A DNA stretch of 32,124 nucleotides, from positions 1 through 32,124 of IMG/VR virus record IMGVR_UViG_2877953467_000004. One strand, 5' to 3'. A program made the position numbers and the translations under genes. Of the stretch, positions 703 through 32,124 are shown in pieces. Source of the DNA: a virus (taxonomy: Duplodnaviria > Heunggongvirae > Uroviricota > Caudoviricetes). Each line of letters begins with the position of its first letter. Position 1 is the first letter of the stretch. Under the pieces are notes generated by a model. It did no database searches and had not been told where the DNA came from. It saw only the letters and a program-made list of their open reading frames with translations.

Positions 703-1065
703 GGGGCTGATTCTGGATTCGACGGGATTTGCGAAACCCAAGGTGCATGCCGAGGGGCGGTTGGCCTCGTAAAAAGCCGCAAAAAATAGTCGCAAACGAC
801 GAAAACTACGCTTTAGCAGCTTAATAACCTGCTTAGAGCCCTCTCTCCCTAGCCTCCGCTCTTAGGACGGGGATCAAGAGAGGTCAAACCCAAAAGAGAT
901 CGCGTGGAAGCCCTGCCTGGGGTTGAAGCGTTAAAACTTAATCAGGCTAGTTTGTTAGTGGCGTGTCCGTCCGCAGCTGGCAAGCGAATGTAAAGACTGA
1001 CTAAGCATGTAGTACCGAGGATGTAGGAATTTCGGACGCGGGTTCAACTCCCGCCAGCTCCACCA
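703..1065 (+). ncRNA. ssrA: tmRNA (transfer-messenger RNA, SsrA)
   Basis: Begins GGGGCTGATTCTGGATTCGACGGG, contains the tag-reading-frame region (GCAAACGACGAAAACTACGCTTTAGCAGCTTAA) and ends with the T-arm GGTTCAACTCCCGCCAGCTCCACCA; 363 nt. Confidence 0.93.
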
Positions 1066-20209: not shown

Positions 20210-21976
20210 ATGAACACCACACTGACACCCGCAGATCTCGATCCCCGTCGGCAGGCCATGCTGCTGTACTTTCAGGGATACCGCGTAGCCCGCATTGCTG
20301 AAATGCTGGGCGAGAAAGTTGCAACCGTTCACAGCTGGAAAAAACGCGACAAGTGGGGTGACTATGGGCCGCTGGATCAGATGCAGCTCACCACCGCCGC
20401 ACGCTACTGCCAGCTCATTATGAAGGAGCACAAAGAAGGGAAAGATTTCAAAGAGATTGACCTGCTGGCGCGCCAGTCGGAGCGCCATGCGCGGATCGGC
20501 AAGTTTAACAATGGCGGCAACGAAGCCGACTTAAACCCTAACGTCGCCAACCGAAACAAAGGCCCGCGTCGTCAGCCGGAAAAGAACGTTTTCACCGATG
20601 AACAGATTGAGAAGCTGGAAGAAATCTTCCATTCCTCCATGTTCAACTATCAGCGCCACTGGTGGGAAGCCGGAAAAACCAACCGCATCCGCAACCTGCT
20701 GAAGTCACGCCAGATCGGTGCGACCTTTTACTTTGCCCGTGAAGCCCTGATTGACGCCCTGCTTACCGGACGTAACCAGATTTTCCTTTCTGCCAGTAAG
20801 GCACAGGCTCACGTCTTTAAGCAGTACATCATCGACTTCGCCAAAGAAGTGGAGGTGGAGCTGAAAGGCGATCCGATGGTGCTTCCCAACGGGGCCACAC
20901 TGTATTTCCTCGGCACCAATGCCCGCACGGCCCAGAGTTACCACGGCAACCTGTATCTGGATGAATATTTCTGGATACCGAAATTCCAGGAGCTGCGCAA
21001 AGTGGCTTCCGGTATGGCTATTCACAAGAAATGGCGACAGACCTATTTTTCCACGCCATCCAGCCTGACACACAGTGCTTATCCGTTCTGGTCCGGTGCG
21101 CTGTTCAACCGTGGGCGCAACAAAGCCGACAAGGTGGACATCGACCTGTCCCACAGCAATCTGGCCCCCGGCCTGCTGTGCGCAGACGGGCAATACCGCC
21201 AGATAGTCACCGTGGAAGATGCGGTGCGCGGCGGCTGTAACCTGTTCGACCTCGACCAGTTGCGCATGGAGTACAGCCCGGACGAATACCAGAACCTGCT
21301 GATGTGCGAGTTCGTTGACGATCTCGCATCTGTGTTCCCGCTCAGCGAATTGCAGGCGTGCATGGTGGACAGCTGGGAAGTCTGGACCGACTTTCATGCA
21401 CTGGCCCTGCGCCCGTTTGGCTGGCGCGAAGTGTGGATCGGTTATGACCCGGCAAAAGGTACGCAGAACGGCGACAGCGCCGGATGCGTGGTGGTGGCTC
21501 CGCCAGCCGTGCCGGGCGGTAAGTTTCGCATTCTTGAGCGTCACCAGTGGCGCGGGATGGACTTCCGCGCCCAGGCGGACGCCATCAAAAAACTGACTGA
21601 ACAGTACAACGTGACCTATATCGGTATCGACTCAACCGGCGTCGGTCACGGGGTTTACGAGAACGTGAAAGCGTTCTTTCCTGCCGTCCGGGAGTTTGTC
21701 TACAACCCCAACGTTAAAAACGCCCTGGTACTCAAGGCCTACGACATTATCAGCCACCGCCGTCTGGAGTTTGACGCCGGACATACCGACATTGCGCAGT
21801 CATTCATGGCAATCCGTCGCGCCACCACCGCCAGTGGCAACCGCCCGACCTACGAAGCCAGCCGCAGCGAAGAAGCCAGCCATGCCGATCTGGCATGGGC
21901 AACCATGCACGCACTGTTTAACGAACCGCTGCAGGGCGAGTCCGCCAATACCAGCAATATTGTGGAGATTTTTTGA
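20210..21976 (+). CDS. P: Terminase large (ATPase) subunit P
   Basis: 588-aa ORF, terminase-like, divergent from O as in P2. Confidence 0.93.
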   Translation: MNTTLTPADLDPRRQAMLLYFQGYRVARIAEMLGEKVATVHSWKKRDKWGDYGPLDQMQLTTAARYCQLIMKEHKEGKDFKEIDLLARQSERHARIGKFNNGGNEADLNPNVANRNKGPRRQPEKNVFTDEQIEKLEEIFHSSMFNYQRHWWEAGKTNRIRNLLKSRQIGATFYFAREALIDALLTGRNQIFLSASKAQAHVFKQYIIDFAKEVEVELKGDPMVLPNGATLYFLGTNARTAQSYHGNLYLDEYFWIPKFQELRKVASGMAIHKKWRQTYFSTPSSLTHSAYPFWSGALFNRGRNKADKVDIDLSHSNLAPGLLCADGQYRQIVTVEDAVRGGCNLFDLDQLRMEYSPDEYQNLLMCEFVDDLASVFPLSELQACMVDSWEVWTDFHALALRPFGWREVWIGYDPAKGTQNGDSAGCVVVAPPAVPGGKFRILERHQWRGMDFRAQADAIKKLTEQYNVTYIGIDSTGVGHGVYENVKAFFPAVREFVYNPNVKNALVLKAYDIISHRRLEFDAGHTDIAQSFMAIRRATTASGNRPTYEASRSEEASHADLAWATMHALFNEPLQGESANTSNIVEIF

Positions 21977-23016
21977 TGAAAGAACATATCGCGCCAGGCG
22001 AAACCGTAACTGCAGAAGAAACTAAAAAACCCGTTGCTGAGGCTTTCAGCTTTGGTGATCCCATTCCTGTACTGGACCGCCGCGAACTGCTGGACTATGT
22101 GGAATGCGTACAGATGGATCGCTGGTATGAGCCGCCCGTCAGTTTTGACGGACTGGCACGAACCTTCCGCGCCGCCGTGCACCACAGCTCCCCGATCAGT
22201 GTTAAACGTGACATCATCAGCAGTACCTATATTCCACATCGCCTTCTCAGCCAGCAGGCATTTACCCGTTTTGTGCAGGACTATCTGGTTTTTGGTAACG
22301 CCTATCTGGAGAAGCGCACGAATCGCTTTGGTGAAGTTATTTCGCTGGAGCCTGCACTGGCAAAATACACCCGGCGCGGGCTTGACCTTGAAACATACTG
22401 GTTTGTGCAATACAGCCTGACGACACAGCCGTATCAGTTCACAAAAGGTAACGTCTTCCACCTGATGGAGCCGGATATCAACCAGGAGATTTATGGTCTG
22501 CCGGGTTACCTTTCTGCCATTCCGTCAGCTCTGCTCAACGAATCCGCCACGCTGTTCCGCCGCAAGTATTACATTAACGGCAGCCACGCAGGCTTCATCA
22601 TGTACATGACCGACGCCGCGCAGAACCAGGAGGATGTGAACAACATCCGCAAGGCAATGAAAAGTGCTAAAGGGCCGGGCAACTTCCGCAACCTGTTTAT
22701 GTACTCGCCTAACGGCAAAAAAGATGGCATTCAGATTATCCCGTTGTCGGAAGTCGCGGCGAAGGATGAATTTCTGAACATCAAGAACGTCAGCCGCGAT
22801 GACATGATGGCGGCTCACCGCGTACCGCCGCAAATGATGGGCATCATTCCCAACAACACTGGCGGCTTTGGTGATGTGGAAAAAGCGAGCCGTGTCTTCG
22901 TCCGCAATGAACTGATGCCACTGCAAAAGCGACTGCAGGAGCTGAATGACTGGCTGAATGAAGAGGTGATCCGTTTTGAAGCTTATGACTTAGGGCTTAA
23001 GGGCAAACGAGGCTGA
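21976..23016 (+). CDS. Q: Portal (capsid vertex) protein Q
   Basis: ATG at 21976 overlapping the P stop; conserved position before cos. Confidence 0.9.
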   Translation: MKEHIAPGETVTAEETKKPVAEAFSFGDPIPVLDRRELLDYVECVQMDRWYEPPVSFDGLARTFRAAVHHSSPISVKRDIISSTYIPHRLLSQQAFTRFVQDYLVFGNAYLEKRTNRFGEVISLEPALAKYTRRGLDLETYWFVQYSLTTQPYQFTKGNVFHLMEPDINQEIYGLPGYLSAIPSALLNESATLFRRKYYINGSHAGFIMYMTDAAQNQEDVNNIRKAMKSAKGPGNFRNLFMYSPNGKKDGIQIIPLSEVAAKDEFLNIKNVSRDDMMAAHRVPPQMMGIIPNNTGGFGDVEKASRVFVRNELMPLQKRLQELNDWLNEEVIRFEAYDLGLKGKRG

Positions 23017-23051
23017 CATACTCATAACATCAAAACCCGACCAACTCTCAC

Positions 23052-23087
23052 AACGCCTCAGCAGCATTCTGCGGGGCGTTTCTTTTT
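23052..23087 (+). terminator. Putative intrinsic terminator downstream of Q
   Basis: GC-rich imperfect hairpin followed by TCTTTTT. Confidence 0.3.
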
Positions 23088-23177
23088 GCCCTGAATCTCC
23101 CCCCCCCTCCACTAAATGAGGCCGCCAGCGGGCCAGAGGCTGTGCCGGATTTTGGCCATTTTACCCCGTTGCGCGCG

Positions 23178-23196
23178 CTCGTATCCCCGCCACGCC
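23178..23196. other. Candidate cos cohesive-end site
   Basis: Reverse complement reads GGCGTGGCGGGGATACGAG, resembling the 19-nt cohesive ends of P2/186 as I recall them (GGCG(A/T)GGCGGGGAAAGCA-); correct position between Q and the early region. Confidence 0.35.
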
Positions 23197-23245
23197 TGCC
23201 CGCTTTGTGTAGTGGTTTTCATGCACCTGCATGACATAAGCAAAA

Positions 23246-23267
23246 GCCCGCCAGTTCTGGCGGGCCT
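23246..23267 (-). terminator. Hairpin terminator downstream of the tum/dinI operon
   Basis: Perfect 9-bp stem GCCCGCCAG-ttct-CTGGCGGGC followed by a short T-run on the - strand. Confidence 0.4.
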
Positions 23268-23399
23268 GAGCAAAAACGATCCTCAAACGATCATGCGATT
23301 TCATGCGGCATAGACATGCACAACAGCACTAACGCCTCGCGTGGCTCGTTGTTCAACCTTGCGGACGGTAAAAACCAGTTTTATCGTCCGCAACGTTCG

Positions 23400-23633
23400 C
23401 TAATGTAACCAGCTGTCGTCCTCCCAGACCTGCTGCATTATTTCCATCACTCGCTTTTTATCTTCATCCAGTTTTAACCCGCTCAGCTCAACGCCGTTGG
23501 CACTGCCCTTACGGATACGAATTGCTGTTTTGGGATACAGAGGGCGCAAATTACGGTAAAGCTCGGATTCAAGGGCGTCCAGTGTAGCCTGGCTAATCTT
23601 CTGCTCTTTATCGATCATTATTTCAATGCGCAT
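23400..23633 (-). CDS. dinI: DinI-family protein
   Basis: 77-aa ORF MRIEIMIDKEQ...EIMQQVWEDDSWL resembles E. coli DinI in length and pattern. Confidence 0.8.
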   Translation of the reverse strand: MRIEIMIDKEQKISQATLDALESELYRNLRPLYPKTAIRIRKGSANGVELSGLKLDEDKKRVMEIMQQVWEDDSWLH

Positions 23634-23644
23634 ACAGATTTCCC

Positions 23645-23833
23645 TTAACTGGTTACGTCCATTGACCGGCAGTATTCATGGCTGCGGATTTTCGCCATCA
23701 GCTCGTCGGTCAATTCAGACACCCACTGGATAGCCAGCCGCTTTTCTTCGTCGCTGCACTCACTAGCCGCTACAAGCTTAATAAAAAAATCAATGCGCTG
23801 GAGCTTCAACGACTCCAAAAGATAGTCCTGCAT
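23645..23833 (-). CDS. Small SOS-regulated protein, putative Tum-like antirepressor N-module
   Basis: 62-aa ORF with GGAGG RBS, directly downstream of a LexA box and upstream of the dinI-like gene, as in the 186 tum operon. Confidence 0.5.
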   Translation of the reverse strand: MQDYLLESLKLQRIDFFIKLVAASECSDEEKRLAIQWVSELTDELMAKIRSHEYCRSMDVTS

Positions 23834-23880
23834 CTTCCCTCCTATCACGACCCCGGACATGCGTTAACTGCATGCATATC

Positions 23881-23900
23881 CACTGTTTATATATACAGTA
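23881..23900. promoter_or_regulatory. LexA operator (SOS box)
   Basis: cACTGTttATATATACAGTA matches the consensus TACTGT-N8-ACAGTA almost perfectly. Confidence 0.75.
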
Positions 23901-23994
23901 TACCCCTGATATCCAAAAGTAAAATATTTTTTATCCGTCAATGAGAACGTTCTTACGAGGGTCGTTAAGAGCATGAATTGTTAAAGCCTTGCCG

Positions 23995-26388
23995 TCAGTA
24001 CCACTGGCGCCATTTGTCATCTTCCTGCAGTCGATGGTTGCGGTAAAAAATCCGTAGCCCGGCACCTGACGGAATGCTGCCACCACGCAGAAGCAAATCA
24101 ATCTCAGATGCACTACCTTCAAACCCTCTGGCAGTCAGTTCTGCCTCAAGCTGCAGGCGCTGCTGCTCCGAAATACTCTGTTTGAATGCTTTTTTCCGCT
24201 TCGGTTTTACCAGTCTTAACCTGGCTGTCAGCTCCCGGCGTTCCTTCTGGCCCATATTGTGGAGGTAATCGTGCAGTTCCTGCTCATTCATGGTTTTAAT
24301 ATCGGGCAAATCACCCCCTGATTTGTTCAGATTTTCAACAGGGGGACAGTTATTGCCACGAGTCCAAGGGGCGCAAGCGCCCTGGTCGGCTGCCGCCTCC
24401 TGAACGTCAACGGCTTTACGAACCATTTTCCACTTCACTGCATGAGTGCAGATCTTGCCCTCTGCAATGGGTGACCAGATGCCATAAATACGAATGCCGT
24501 GATCGCCATAGGCGGTCGGCTCTTCGTTGATTTCATAAGCGGTTCTGATGAGGTGATATTTACGGGGAACCAGTACGCCGCCCTGCTTCATGATGTAGGT
24601 GGCAAAACAACCAGCATCAGCAGCAGCCAGAATGGCATCAAGACGCGGGTTATCCAGTACCGGCGCACCTGCATTTTTGTCCCCCTGTTGCCTTGCCGCC
24701 TGACCAGCCAACAATCGCAGTTCACGGTAAGCCTGACGCCCCGGAATGCCAAAGAAGCGGAATTGCTGAACACGATGCAAAGACGCCCAGGCATTCACGT
24801 ATTCAGCGTTATCACGCAGAGATTTACCCGTTTCCTTGCTGATCTCGCCAGCCAGACCACGACCGTCAATGTTCTTACTGATATATTTCGCGATGTAGCT
24901 TGTCGGCGTTCCTTTGCGCGGGTTAATCAACTCAGACTTAAAGCGCGGCCCAGTGTTATTGCCCAGCTCCTCGCGGTCTTCACGGATGGCAAACTTACGC
25001 AGTAATGCAGTGATGGCACGGCGGTCTTTTTTGCGCATGAAACACAACAGGTGCCAGTGAACTGTGCCATCATGATGCGGCTCAGCCACCCGCACGCCAT
25101 ACCAGCGCAACCCGGCTTTGTGCATCGCCTTACGAAATGCAGCAAACATGCCGACCAGATAATCGCTGCTTTGTCTTACCGTCGCGTTTGTCCAGGTCGG
25201 GTTTGGTCTGCCGTTATTTAGCGTGGAATGGAAACGCGACGGACAGGTGATAGTGTAGAAAACGGCGCAGTCACCGCGCATTTCCGCGATAAGCTCCAGA
25301 CCTTTAACACAGGCCATCATCTCATTGCGGCGATGCGCAGGGTTGCTGCTGCTGGCGTTTACCACATCCTCCATGTCCAGCGTGTCGCCGTCTTCGTTCA
25401 CCAGTTCATGAGAACGGAAAAACTCCAGCGACTTACGGCGCTGCTCACGTTTATGCATCACGGCTTCATAGCTGACATAAGGAGATGCTTTTTTGCTGAC
25501 CAGGCAAACAGCGCGCAACTGCTCTTCCCGCCATTCGCAACGCATCTTCCATAATTTCCGATACCACCAGTCGGCGCACAACATACGCGCCAGCGAACCC
25601 GGAATGAGTTCATAGGGCACGGGTTTACGGCGGTTTCTTTTCCGACGGAGTTGCTCAAACGCAGGTGGGATGACATCCAGACGCAGGGTTTCCGCTGCCA
25701 CCTTTTCCCATGTCTTGCGGATTTCTTCTGGCTTAACGTCATCGGTGGCATACAAATCACCACAAGCTGCATCAAGGCACATACTCATATGCGCAGCTAC
25801 CAGGGTGGACAGGCGTTTCACCTGATCCTGACTCATTTCAGGCAGGATCAGCAGGCCGTCCAGCCCTTCATGGCTTGCCATAAAGCGAAAAGATGCAGAT
25901 AGCTGACTGTCGCGTACATGCTCCAGTCGTTCCAGACATGGCTTAATCGTCTCACGTAAATAGCGGGAATAAGCCTTTGGCCTGCCCAGGCTGCTGAAGT
26001 ATTCAATACGTTGCATCAGCGGCTTGCTGATATGGGAAGGCTGGGCGTTGACGTCCGCCAGAATGACCATGTCTGAATTAAAACGCTGCTGCTCATGCGC
26101 CAGCTTTGCCCGGCTAATGAGCTTATCCTGCTCCATTTCGCGCTGGACAGGATCACGTGATTCATTAAAGAAATAACGCTCCCAGACCTGATCACTCAGT
26201 GCCTCGCGGCGCAACTGTTCCTGCTCGTTATCGGCAGCGTACAGAGTGATCAGGTTTGAAAGCGTAGAAACCGGCGCAACTTCCGCCGGGTCCAGATAAG
26301 GGTTAATGGCCTTTTTCGGGCTGTTCCATGAGAATGCTGCGGCAGCCTCGTTAAAGCCGCAGCAGTTGTTCATATCGGCATGAGTCAT
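23995..26388 (-). CDS. A: Replication initiation endonuclease A (rolling-circle initiator)
   Basis: 797-aa ORF at the P2 gene A position with the expected size. Confidence 0.9.
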
Positions 26389-27242
26389 GCACGTACTCCG
26401 TACACGGCAGAACTATCCACGCCACGCGAATAATCAAATCCCATCCAGCAGCACGGCCCGGAAACAGCAATGATTTCTGTTGCTGATTTACCCTCGCCAG
26501 CTGCCACACCGATGCTGCGTTTTACCTTGATATAGTGGTGAGTAAAATTGCGATACAGCGAACGGATCAGGGATGTGTCACTGTTAGAAACAATGACTGG
26601 ATGTCCTTCTGATGACCGATGTTCAAGAACGGATGCCAGGTGATACTGGTCATCTTCAGTGAAACCATCAGTGTGATAGCCGGAAAACGTACCGTCATAC
26701 GGCGGATCGCAATACACCACATCTCCCGCGTGCAACATTGCCAGCGTTTCATCGAAGCTGGCGCAGATAAATGTTGCCCGCTGGGCTTTTTCTGCAAATG
26801 CACGAATTTCTTTTTCAGGGAAATACGGATTTTTATAATTACCGTAGGGAATGTTGAAATGCCCGCTCTTGTTATAGCGACATAAACCACGGTAACCGTG
26901 ACGATTGAGATACAGGAAATATACCGCTTTCATGAAATCAGTAATTTCAGTGGAGTAATTAAACTCCTGCCTTATGTTGTAATAAGCCACCTCCCTGTTT
27001 GCGATCTCAAATAAAACTCTGGCGCGAGATATAAACGATTCACAATCAGCGGCAACCTTTTTATAGAGGTTGATTAAATCAGGATTAATATCCGCAACCA
27101 AATAGCTGGGGTAATCCGTCTCCATCATCACAGCACAAGAACCCGCGAAAGGTTCAACCAGTCGCGGGCCAGCAGGAAGGTGTTTTTTCAGTTCGGACAT
27201 AATGGCGGTTTTATTACCCGCCCATTTCAGGATGGTGCTCAT
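26385..27242 (-). CDS. dam: Orphan DNA adenine methyltransferase, Dam family
   Basis: 285-aa ORF with FAGSC (AdoMet-binding) and DPPY catalytic motifs; no adjacent restriction endonuclease gene. Confidence 0.9.
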
Positions 27243-29390: not shown

Positions 29391-29491
29391 CACAAAAATA
29401 CGATCTCGTTATTGGATTGTCAAATGGAGAGTTCATCTTGAAGATTAGTACAGGTGCAAATACGGGAGGGAGAGAGACCATCAAAAGGCTG

Positions 29492-30067
29492 ATGACAGCC
29501 TATGGTTTCAACACTCAGATAGCGTTGGTTGAACACCTCGAAGCATCAAAAAGCACCATGGCAAACAGGATGTTACGTGATAGCTTCCCTGCTGACTGGG
29601 TTATTCAATGTGCCCTTGAAACAGGTATTTCTCTTCTTTGGCTGACAACGGGCCAAGGGGAAATGTATCCTCAAACAGAAGAAAAAAATAAGTTCAAAAA
29701 CGAGAGTTCACCTATAGTTCGCCCCCTTTCAAAGATAGTTATCCCATCAGTAAGGCAGGCAACCATTGAGAACGGAACGCTCGAAGAGATGGGGGATGTT
29801 TTCCTTGATCAGACTTTGATACCCGGAAAAGCCGAATATTGTTTGTACGTCAAAGCTAACGACGGCAATTACATTGTTGATACATCAACAAAACAGCTTA
29901 GTAACGGAATTTGGCTCATAGACATCGACGGTATGAAAAACATCGTCAAAATTGCGCGCATACCTGGAAACAAAATAGTAGTTAACCAAGATGACACTTC
30001 ATTTGAATGTTCTGTAGATGATGTGGAAGTCGTAGGACGTGCAGTCAAAGTAATCAAGAACCTCTAA
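29492..30067 (+). CDS. cI: Immunity repressor CI (186-type)
   Basis: N-terminal HTH (FNTQIALVEHLEASKSTMANRM); ATG at 29492 gives 191 aa, close to the 192-aa size of 186 CI as I recall it; immediately upstream of int. Confidence 0.8.
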   Translation: MTAYGFNTQIALVEHLEASKSTMANRMLRDSFPADWVIQCALETGISLLWLTTGQGEMYPQTEEKNKFKNESSPIVRPLSKIVIPSVRQATIENGTLEEMGDVFLDQTLIPGKAEYCLYVKANDGNYIVDTSTKQLSNGIWLIDIDGMKNIVKIARIPGNKIVVNQDDTSFECSVDDVEVVGRAVKVIKNL

Positions 30068-31092: not shown

Positions 31093-32124
31093 ATGGAAAA
31101 AAGCATTAGCACATTTATGTACCTATCCGTTTTATTAGGTTGTATATTCTTATTTATAAAATATCGACTTTATGTTCTCGATCATAGAAGCCTGTTCCAA
31201 CAACCCTTGTTCTGGGCTGCAATAGGCCTACCTTTATTCACCAGCCTTTACTTTGGTTCTTTTGTCTGGATAGATAAAATACACTCTTTTAGTCTTACAA
31301 GTCACGGTTATGAGAGATTTTTAGATATCTCGAAATTACCATTACTCATCCTTGCATCTGCAGTACCTTTAGTTTCAATAGTAAACAACCTACACAGAAC
31401 CAAACAAACAGAAAAACAGATCTCAGAGGCAGAAAGGAAAAACAGGGTAGATTTATATTACAACCACATGAAATTTCATCTTGATTTATATAAAAAAATC
31501 GAAGGAAAAAGAATAGGCAGCTACTACCCGGTTCAGGAAGCTCAAGCTGAAGCAATCTACCAACATTTTATAAAACATCCACAAGAACTATATAGAAAAG
31601 CATACCCACAATCTACGCCTGATGATTCTCAACAATTAGATATTAATGAGCAATTTGTTATTGATTTACACAAATGTTGGGTAGAAATCAACGCAAGACT
31701 CAAGCAATTATCCGAGAGTGAAAATCAAATACATCCTACAGAGGAACTTTGCACAACAAAGATGAGAATATTTGTAGGAGTTATGATTATTTATGAAAAA
31801 ACTTGTAAACTGTTGTGTTTAGGTGGATTTCATTATAAAAAGTCATTTGTAATAAATGATAGTTATAATAAATACCAAGTTTATTCACCATTTTATGATT
31901 TTGGCACTCTGTACGAATCACTGCAATCCTTAGAAGAGATAACCTACGCCTTCTTGGATACTTGCAGAAATGAAGTGGTAAACTTGTACTTCCCTATAGA
32001 AGATAAAATTTTGATATATGGTGAAGGGATTCTAGAGAATTGGTTCAAGTATTCTCAGTTCTTGATCACTATAGCTTATCAACCCGCCAAGATGTCTCGC
32101 TTACCCCAGCTGAGACGCGATTGA
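31093..32124 (+). CDS. A+T-rich membrane-anchored protein of unknown function; prophage-end cargo candidate
   Basis: 343-aa ORF starting 2 nt after the int stop; three predicted N-terminal TM helices then a helical soluble domain; abrupt drop in G+C at the int stop. Confidence 0.65.
   Translation: MEKSISTFMYLSVLLGCIFLFIKYRLYVLDHRSLFQQPLFWAAIGLPLFTSLYFGSFVWIDKIHSFSLTSHGYERFLDISKLPLLILASAVPLVSIVNNLHRTKQTEKQISEAERKNRVDLYYNHMKFHLDLYKKIEGKRIGSYYPVQEAQAEAIYQHFIKHPQELYRKAYPQSTPDDSQQLDINEQFVIDLHKCWVEINARLKQLSESENQIHPTEELCTTKMRIFVGVMIIYEKTCKLLCLGGFHYKKSFVINDSYNKYQVYSPFYDFGTLYESLQSLEEITYAFLDTCRNEVVNLYFPIEDKILIYGEGILENWFKYSQFLITIAYQPAKMSRLPQLRRD

Follow-up and report, generated by a model that had tools for sequence, protein, structure and literature searches.

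Positions 23400-23900 of the window (the whole 32,124-nt stretch of DNA analysed here) very probably hold a split tumA/tumB version of the p95-tum system of phage 186, serving as the SOS operon of an inducible, ssrA-integrated P2-family prophage of the Fels-2/SopEΦ type. The operon is encoded on the minus strand and is made up of a LexA box, a tumA-like gene of 62 codons and a DinI-family gene of 77 codons. Every feature of a Tum system that we checked in the sequence was found, except the fusion of the two parts into one polypeptide. The split LexA-tumA-dinI(tumB) module has already been published and annotated (PsP3, Fels-2) and genetically tested in close relatives. As a member of this described variant, the window copy is therefore already known, and it is an ordinary one.

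Prophage context and gene order

Judged from its sequence, the window is a segment of an E. coli chromosome harbouring a P2-family prophage of the Fels-2/SopEΦ type. Its flank (1-1100) contains smpB followed by the tmRNA gene (703-1065, plus strand; tag ANDENYALAA), and sequence identity of this smpB-ssrA flank to E. coli is 100%. In this E. coli chromosome the prophage thus occupies ssrA, where SopEΦ and Fels-2 also integrate.

Immediately upstream of the module, the ORF list contains a gene for a gpA-like rolling-circle replication endonuclease (23995..26388, minus strand), whose homologue in relatives is annotated as P2 gpA or 186 A. On the other side, 133 nt past the stop codon of the dinI-like gene, a terminator scan yielded a G+C-rich hairpin with a T-rich tail (23244..23267, minus strand; 10 pairs, 7 of them G-C), which is the likely end of the operon. 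It is followed by the cos-like cohesive-end sequence GGCGTGGCGGGGATACGAG (23178..23196, minus strand), which marks the right end of the phage genome and shares its first 13 nt with the annotated 19-nt cos of phage 186. Beyond cos lies the portal gene (21973..23016), on the plus strand and hence opposite to the module. Phage 186 shows the same succession (A - LexA box - tum - terminator - cos - portal), and there too the module is the last transcription unit ahead of cos.

Between the dinI-like gene and cos/portal (23017-23399) we found only the terminator-like hairpin and cos, i.e. the cargo slot is empty. The equivalent slot is occupied by an orf97 homologue and a gene for a 565-aa protein in Fels-2, by orf12-15 in SopEΦ, by a gene for a TIR-domain protein in phage 500465-1 and by a DNA methylase gene in the related locus L017. 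In such cargo-bearing relatives, read-through from the LexA-controlled promoter could bring the cargo under SOS control. Just upstream of gpA, and overlapping it, the window encodes a Dam-like D12-class N6-adenine DNA methyltransferase (26385-27242, minus strand; Pfam PF02086, 3.6e-76); the same arrangement is present in Fels-2 and SopEΦ ('retron Ec67 Dam-like').

LexA box and promoter

The LexA (SOS) box TACTGTATATATAAACAGTG is located at 23881..23900 on the minus strand (plus-strand 20-mer CACTGTTTATATATACAGTA). Of its 20 positions, 18 agree with the consensus TACTGTATATATATACAGTA; CTGT and ACAG are both intact, and no other site in the 32-kb window has three or fewer mismatches; none of 100 shuffled sequences contained any. 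Within it, CTGTTTATATATACAG at 23883-23898 forms a CTGT-N8-ACAG palindrome with an A/T-rich spacer that lies over the promoter, as is characteristic of the E. coli LexA regulon. By these features 23881-23900 is a candidate LexA operator of the E. coli SOS-box type, to which LexA is predicted to bind. The distance from the box to the ATG at 23833 is 47 nt, in agreement with the preliminary description, which had reported a near-consensus LexA box about 50 bp upstream of a 62-aa ORF.

The box has been kept in all ten relatives inspected (186, PsP3, Fels-2, SopEΦ and six more phages of Yersinia, Klebsiella, E. coli and Cronobacter). In these ten, a CTG-N10-CAG box is positioned 38-68 nt ahead of the start codon of the homologous gene, with divergent flanking intergenic sequence.

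The intergenic region from gpA to the module comprises 94 nt and carries a -35-like hexamer TTTACT, a 17-nt spacer and the LexA box. The hexamer (23918..23923, minus strand), read from the sequence, would belong to a promoter equivalent to p95. A TTTAC(A/T) hexamer exactly 17 nt upstream of TACTGT recurs in the window, Fels-2, SopEΦ, Yersinia MLG42 and Klebsiella ST437phi4.1, the spacer sequence being variable. TACTGT (23900..23895) represents the first six bases of the box and is the counterpart of the -10 element of 186 p95, which in the annotation of the 186 record coincides with the six leading bases of its LexA site; an alternative -10 element is TATACT at 23902..23897. As a generic sigma-70 promoter scan called no promoter here, we based the assignment on conservation and on the p95 annotation of 186. 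With this promoter geometry, LexA bound to the box would occlude the -10 element and the start region.

The dinI-like ORF contains a second exact CTGT-N8-ACAG match (CTGTTTTGGGATACAG, 23525-23540), with a G-rich spacer and with the conserved LYPKT motif as its translation. We rejected this match as an operator because one extra occurrence fits the chance expectation (mean 0.42). In several relatives (L002, L004, L006, L007 and L008), the LexA box is directly followed by GGTTAT(A/G)T(A/G)TACAGT, which adds an ACAGT half-site about 12 nt downstream at a non-canonical spacing; the window counterpart at 23861-23880 on the minus strand (GGATATGCATGCAGT) is degenerate.

The tumA-like gene

The tumA-like gene (23645..23833, minus strand; 62 aa plus stop) starts with the ATG at 23833 and ends with a TAA stop codon at 23645. 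Its Shine-Dalgarno sequence AGGAGGG (23837..23843, minus strand) was read from the sequence, and the motif AGGAGG(A/G)AA(A/G) immediately ahead of the ATG is kept in relatives. A 71-aa version starting from an upstream ATG at 23860 was rejected, as it is devoid of a Shine-Dalgarno sequence and relatives have not conserved the additional stretch. ORFs on the plus strand of this region (e.g. 23678..23944, 88 aa) overlap the conserved minus-strand genes and were treated as spurious.

The encoded protein has the same sequence as SopEΦ orf10 (100% identity), shares 87% identity with Fels-2 STM2728 and matches phrog_698 (function unknown; E 2.8e-36). No credible match was obtained in Pfam, NCBIfam or PADLOC, and none among PDB sequences. 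A phmmer search against 1.84 billion representatives returned 58 matches, nearly all of about 50-130 aa; as none of the 58 was fused to DinI, this search alone gave no link to Tum. Likewise, pairwise BLASTP produced no alignment between the 62-aa ORF and 186 Tum. The link emerged from a family HMM built from 24 diverse members, which matched residues 5-48 of 186 Tum with 35.4 bits (E 4.7e-11) and other Tum-N proteins with 36-43 bits; the best score among 6100 shuffled controls was 11.9 bits. PsP3 TumA reached only 4 bits with the same profile. In a joint alignment with Tum-N the core is gap-free, and E7, R13, C26, A34 and E40 are nearly invariant. On this profile evidence, the 62-aa ORF is homologous to the N-terminal (non-DinI) half of 186 Tum.

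An AlphaFold2 model confidently predicts a helical hairpin (H2-23, H28-61; pLDDT 86.5), for which a Foldseek search of the PDB returned generic hairpins only (E ≥ 0.9) and thus no informative neighbour.

The dinI-like gene

The tumA-like stop codon and the start codon of the dinI-like gene (tumB; 23400..23633, minus strand; 77 aa plus stop) are separated by 11 nt (23644..23634). The protein matches the Pfam DinI family (PF06183) with 84.1 bits at a cut-off of 24.2 (E 8.8e-24; positions 2-63 of the 63-position model), so that the DinI-family gene noticed earlier 11 nt behind the 62-aa ORF is indeed a member of this family. It also matches the structure of E. coli DinI (1ghh; E 6.5e-9) over its full length, including the acidic C-terminal W-E-x-x-D-W region, and 70 of its 77 residues are identical to PsP3 TumB. 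With the NCBIfam equivalog for chromosomal DinI (NF007893) it scores 51.7 bits, below the cut-off of 111, and is thus a phage DinI paralogue of the TumB type and not the product of host dinI.

The dinI-like ORF aligns to residues 71-145 of 186 Tum with 41% identity (E 1e-24). This bears out the view, put forward in the preliminary description, that 186 Tum is a single protein with a DinI-like C-terminal part, and together with the profile match of the 62-aa family to Tum 5-48 (35 bits) it substantiates the proposal that Tum is divided here into two ORFs. Aligned to 186 Tum as had been suggested, the dinI-like ORF matched pairwise, and the 62-aa ORF by family profile but not by pairwise BLASTP. 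In the window the two parts are encoded by two cistrons, each with its own ribosome-binding site, with the TAA stop and the 11-nt spacer between them. As separate cistrons, they correspond to the split tumA/tumB variant (PsP3, Fels-2) and not to the fused form of 186.

CI repressor and proposed mechanism

The presumed target of the antirepressor is a 186-type CI immunity repressor (29417..30067, plus strand; Pfam PF07022 and PF16452), 32% identical to 186 CI over 193 residues (E 6e-35). CII and Apl are 70% and 30% identical, respectively, to their 186 counterparts. Pfam detected only the Phage_CI_repr and Phage_CI_C domains in the window CI and no S24 peptidase (autocleavage) domain. A CI that is devoid of the autocleavage domain implies that SOS induction needs an antirepressor. 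The 186-type CI is not directly RecA-responsive, hence a LexA-controlled antirepressor is required (PMC7708051).

We propose that in the lysogen host LexA would sit on 23881-23900, covering the -10/start region of a sigma-70 promoter and keeping this promoter shut. Upon DNA damage, activated RecA would elicit self-cleavage of LexA and the promoter would fire, giving rise to a short bicistronic mRNA that would extend to the hairpin before cos. The 62-aa helical-hairpin protein would bind the RecA-uncleavable CI and block its operator occupancy, resulting in derepression of the lytic promoter (pR). The DinI paralogue, as the counterpart of the C-terminal Tum half, would most likely bind RecA filaments and tune the strength or duration of the SOS response, being accessory to derepression. 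We consider it accessory because Tum-N genes occur without dinI, because 186 has a separate DinI-like product and because dinI deletions in Gifsy prophages are harmless to induction (see below).

Of this scheme, the sequence anatomy, the homologies, the conserved LexA box and the type of CI were established here; we infer the binding of TumA to the window CI and the role of the DinI protein, and we take the dependence on LexA and tum from published work on near-identical orthologues. Identity between the window CI and those of SopEΦ and Fels-2 is no higher than 53-60%, so that the genetics of the orthologues can be extended to the window CI only by inference.

Related systems and published genetics

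The module of PsP3 (NC_005340, PSP3p39/p40) resembles that of the window in having a LexA box (TACTGTATAAATATACAGTA), a gene of about 60 codons and a 77-aa DinI-like gene, which together lie behind gene A, close to the right end of the genome. The GenBank record describes tumA as 'similar to 5' end 186 tum; UV induction of prophage' and tumB as 'similar to dinI and 3' end of 186 tum'. In contrast to the window, PsP3 has a divergent TumA allele, a gap of 3 nt instead of 11 nt between the two genes, and a CI that is only 33% identical to the window CI. SopEΦ (orf10/orf11), Fels-2 (STM2728/STM2726.1) and the tum-carrying prophage of E. coli HS belong to the same family, share the architecture and the integration at ssrA, and have conserved the LexA box and its -35 spacing. 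They differ from the window in their CI allele and in the cargo genes between dinI and cos.

Phage 186 itself has the LexA-repressed promoter with the box over the -10 element, the location after gene A and before cos and the 186-type CI target in common with the window, whereas its two Tum halves form one polypeptide of 146 aa and orf97, which is missing in the window, lies behind a partial terminator. A more distant parallel is provided by the dinI-gfoA/gftA operons of the Gifsy prophages, in which a LexA box drives a transcript encoding both a small antirepressor and a DinI homologue, and whose repressors are not cleaved; in these operons, however, dinI comes first, the phages are lambdoid, and antirepressor and repressor belong to unrelated families (PMC3121763).

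LexA-controlled Tum thus occurs in three architectures: fused, split and N-domain only. Examples of the last type are L017 (1960-2195), in which a gene for a 186-type 63-aa 'Tum protein' with an intact LexA box is followed by the DNA methylase gene, and the ESSI-2-type phages L010 and L011 (around 1460-1715), which have an intact LexA box and no dinI thereafter.

The genetics published for these relatives concern mainly the upstream gene. Lemire 2011, citing Bunny 2002, stated that a stop codon splits tum in Fels-2 and PSP3, and attributed the antirepressor activity of PSP3 to the upstream gene alone on the basis of a personal communication (PMC3121763). In the P2-like prophage of E. coli HS, an in-frame Δtum deletion or lexA(Ind-) each abolishes lysis by mitomycin C (Phollow preprint; PMC11195241). 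In Fels-2 and phage 500465-1, the primers published for this Δtum deletion fall precisely on the start and the stop of the 62-aa ORF, 189 nt apart, and leave dinI intact. For SopEΦ, reviews report that deletion of tum blocks phage transfer (PMC8710666, PMC9827884). In Gifsy prophages, non-polar dinI deletions left induction unchanged (PMC3121763).

Alternative explanations

The preliminary description had offered two functional readings, a two-component antirepressor or a DinI moron that also modulates host RecA. According to the former, the 62-aa and DinI-like proteins must act jointly on CI, as a non-covalent equivalent of full-length Tum. The two halves are indeed one polypeptide in 186, the two ORFs lie 11 nt apart and are predicted to be co-transcribed in the window as well as in dozens of relatives, and the Δtum deletion in HS shows the small ORF to be necessary, not sufficient (PMC11195241). 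We nevertheless regard such joint action as very improbable: Tum-N genes with the same LexA box but lacking dinI exist in ESSI-2-type phages and as stand-alone genes of the 186-type 63-aa kind, and the activity in PSP3 was ascribed to the upstream gene alone (PMC3121763). Phage 186, moreover, uses an internal GTG to produce a DinI-like protein of 77 aa separately, which is annotated as a modulator, and the Gifsy deletions mentioned above also speak against a requirement for the DinI protein. Of the options originally put forward, an antirepressor with an accessory DinI protein is favoured, and the two-component version is disfavoured by the dinI-less Tum-N genes and the PSP3 attribution.

Slightly less probable still is that the operon serves the host as an SOS-regulated moron, with DinI damping RecA, the small protein fulfilling another role and the prophage being induced otherwise or never. 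The absence of a curated family for the 62-aa ORF in Pfam, NCBIfam and PADLOC leaves room for this idea, and DinI homologues are common SOS-controlled prophage cargo (PMC3121763). On the other hand, the 62-aa ORF is homologous to the Tum N-domain and occupies the position that tum has in 186, orthologues that are 87-100% identical are needed for induction, and no other SOS route is apparent for a CI without an autocleavage domain. It is also conceivable, if extremely unlikely, that box and ORFs are intact but reside in a defective prophage, where the module would be without consequence at the level of the phage. Some P2-like prophages carrying tum, such as BTP5, yield no infectious phage (PMC7067206), but gpA, CI, CII, Apl, Int, cos and portal are all represented by intact frames or sites in the window, and near-identical copies of the module (99.7-99.8%) are found in several unrelated E. 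coli strains. A defective prophage would, in any case, leave the identity of the module unchanged as a split Tum system.

Prevalence and a possible breadth of TumA action

At an identity of at least 80%, the module is present in 1201 of 5426 complete E. coli genomes, and throughout these PGAP calls the small ORF a 'hypothetical protein'. A literature search on TumA/TumB returned unrelated papers only. There is an annotation gap in that none of Pfam, NCBIfam and PADLOC offers a model for a 62-aa antirepressor encoded in about one fifth of complete E. coli genomes. With a curated model for Tum-N/TumA, one could directly flag SOS-inducible P2-like prophages, including carriers of virulence genes such as SopEΦ. 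Beyond this, the scientific weight of the window copy is small, as it is a near-identical instance of the established induction switch of P2-family prophages of the 186/Fels-2 type.

TumA is conserved where CI diverges, which gives a modest, testable lead concerning cross-induction between prophages. In phages with a CI just 33-82% identical to that of the window, TumA identity still amounts to 81-100%; in SopEΦ, for example, TumA is 100% and CI 53% identical, and in Klebsiella 4LV2017 the values are 89% and 33-36%. Within CI, residues 44-80 (SKSTMANRMLRDSFPADWVIQCALETGISLLWLTTGQ in the window) are 68-92% identical in those phages, compared to 43% in 186, whereas identity in the C-terminal domain drops to 25-55%; this correlation covers six sequences, and 186 has a different Tum-N type. 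A tentative explanation, which we consider possible but rather doubtful, would be that the TumA family acts as a broad-spectrum antirepressor recognizing the conserved N-terminal patch of CI (44-80) and not an allele-specific surface. If so, one SOS-induced TumA could cross-induce co-resident P2-family prophages with other CI alleles, as shown for the Gifsy antirepressors.

Finally, a 343-aa ORF (31093-32124, plus strand) with hydrophobic N-terminal segments begins 2 nt past the integrase stop codon, on the same strand as cI-int. Searches of Pfam, NCBIfam and PADLOC gave no match for it, and SopEΦ has at the corresponding place 'orfY', which looks unrelated. The 343-aa ORF may represent an accessory or exclusion gene expressed during lysogeny.
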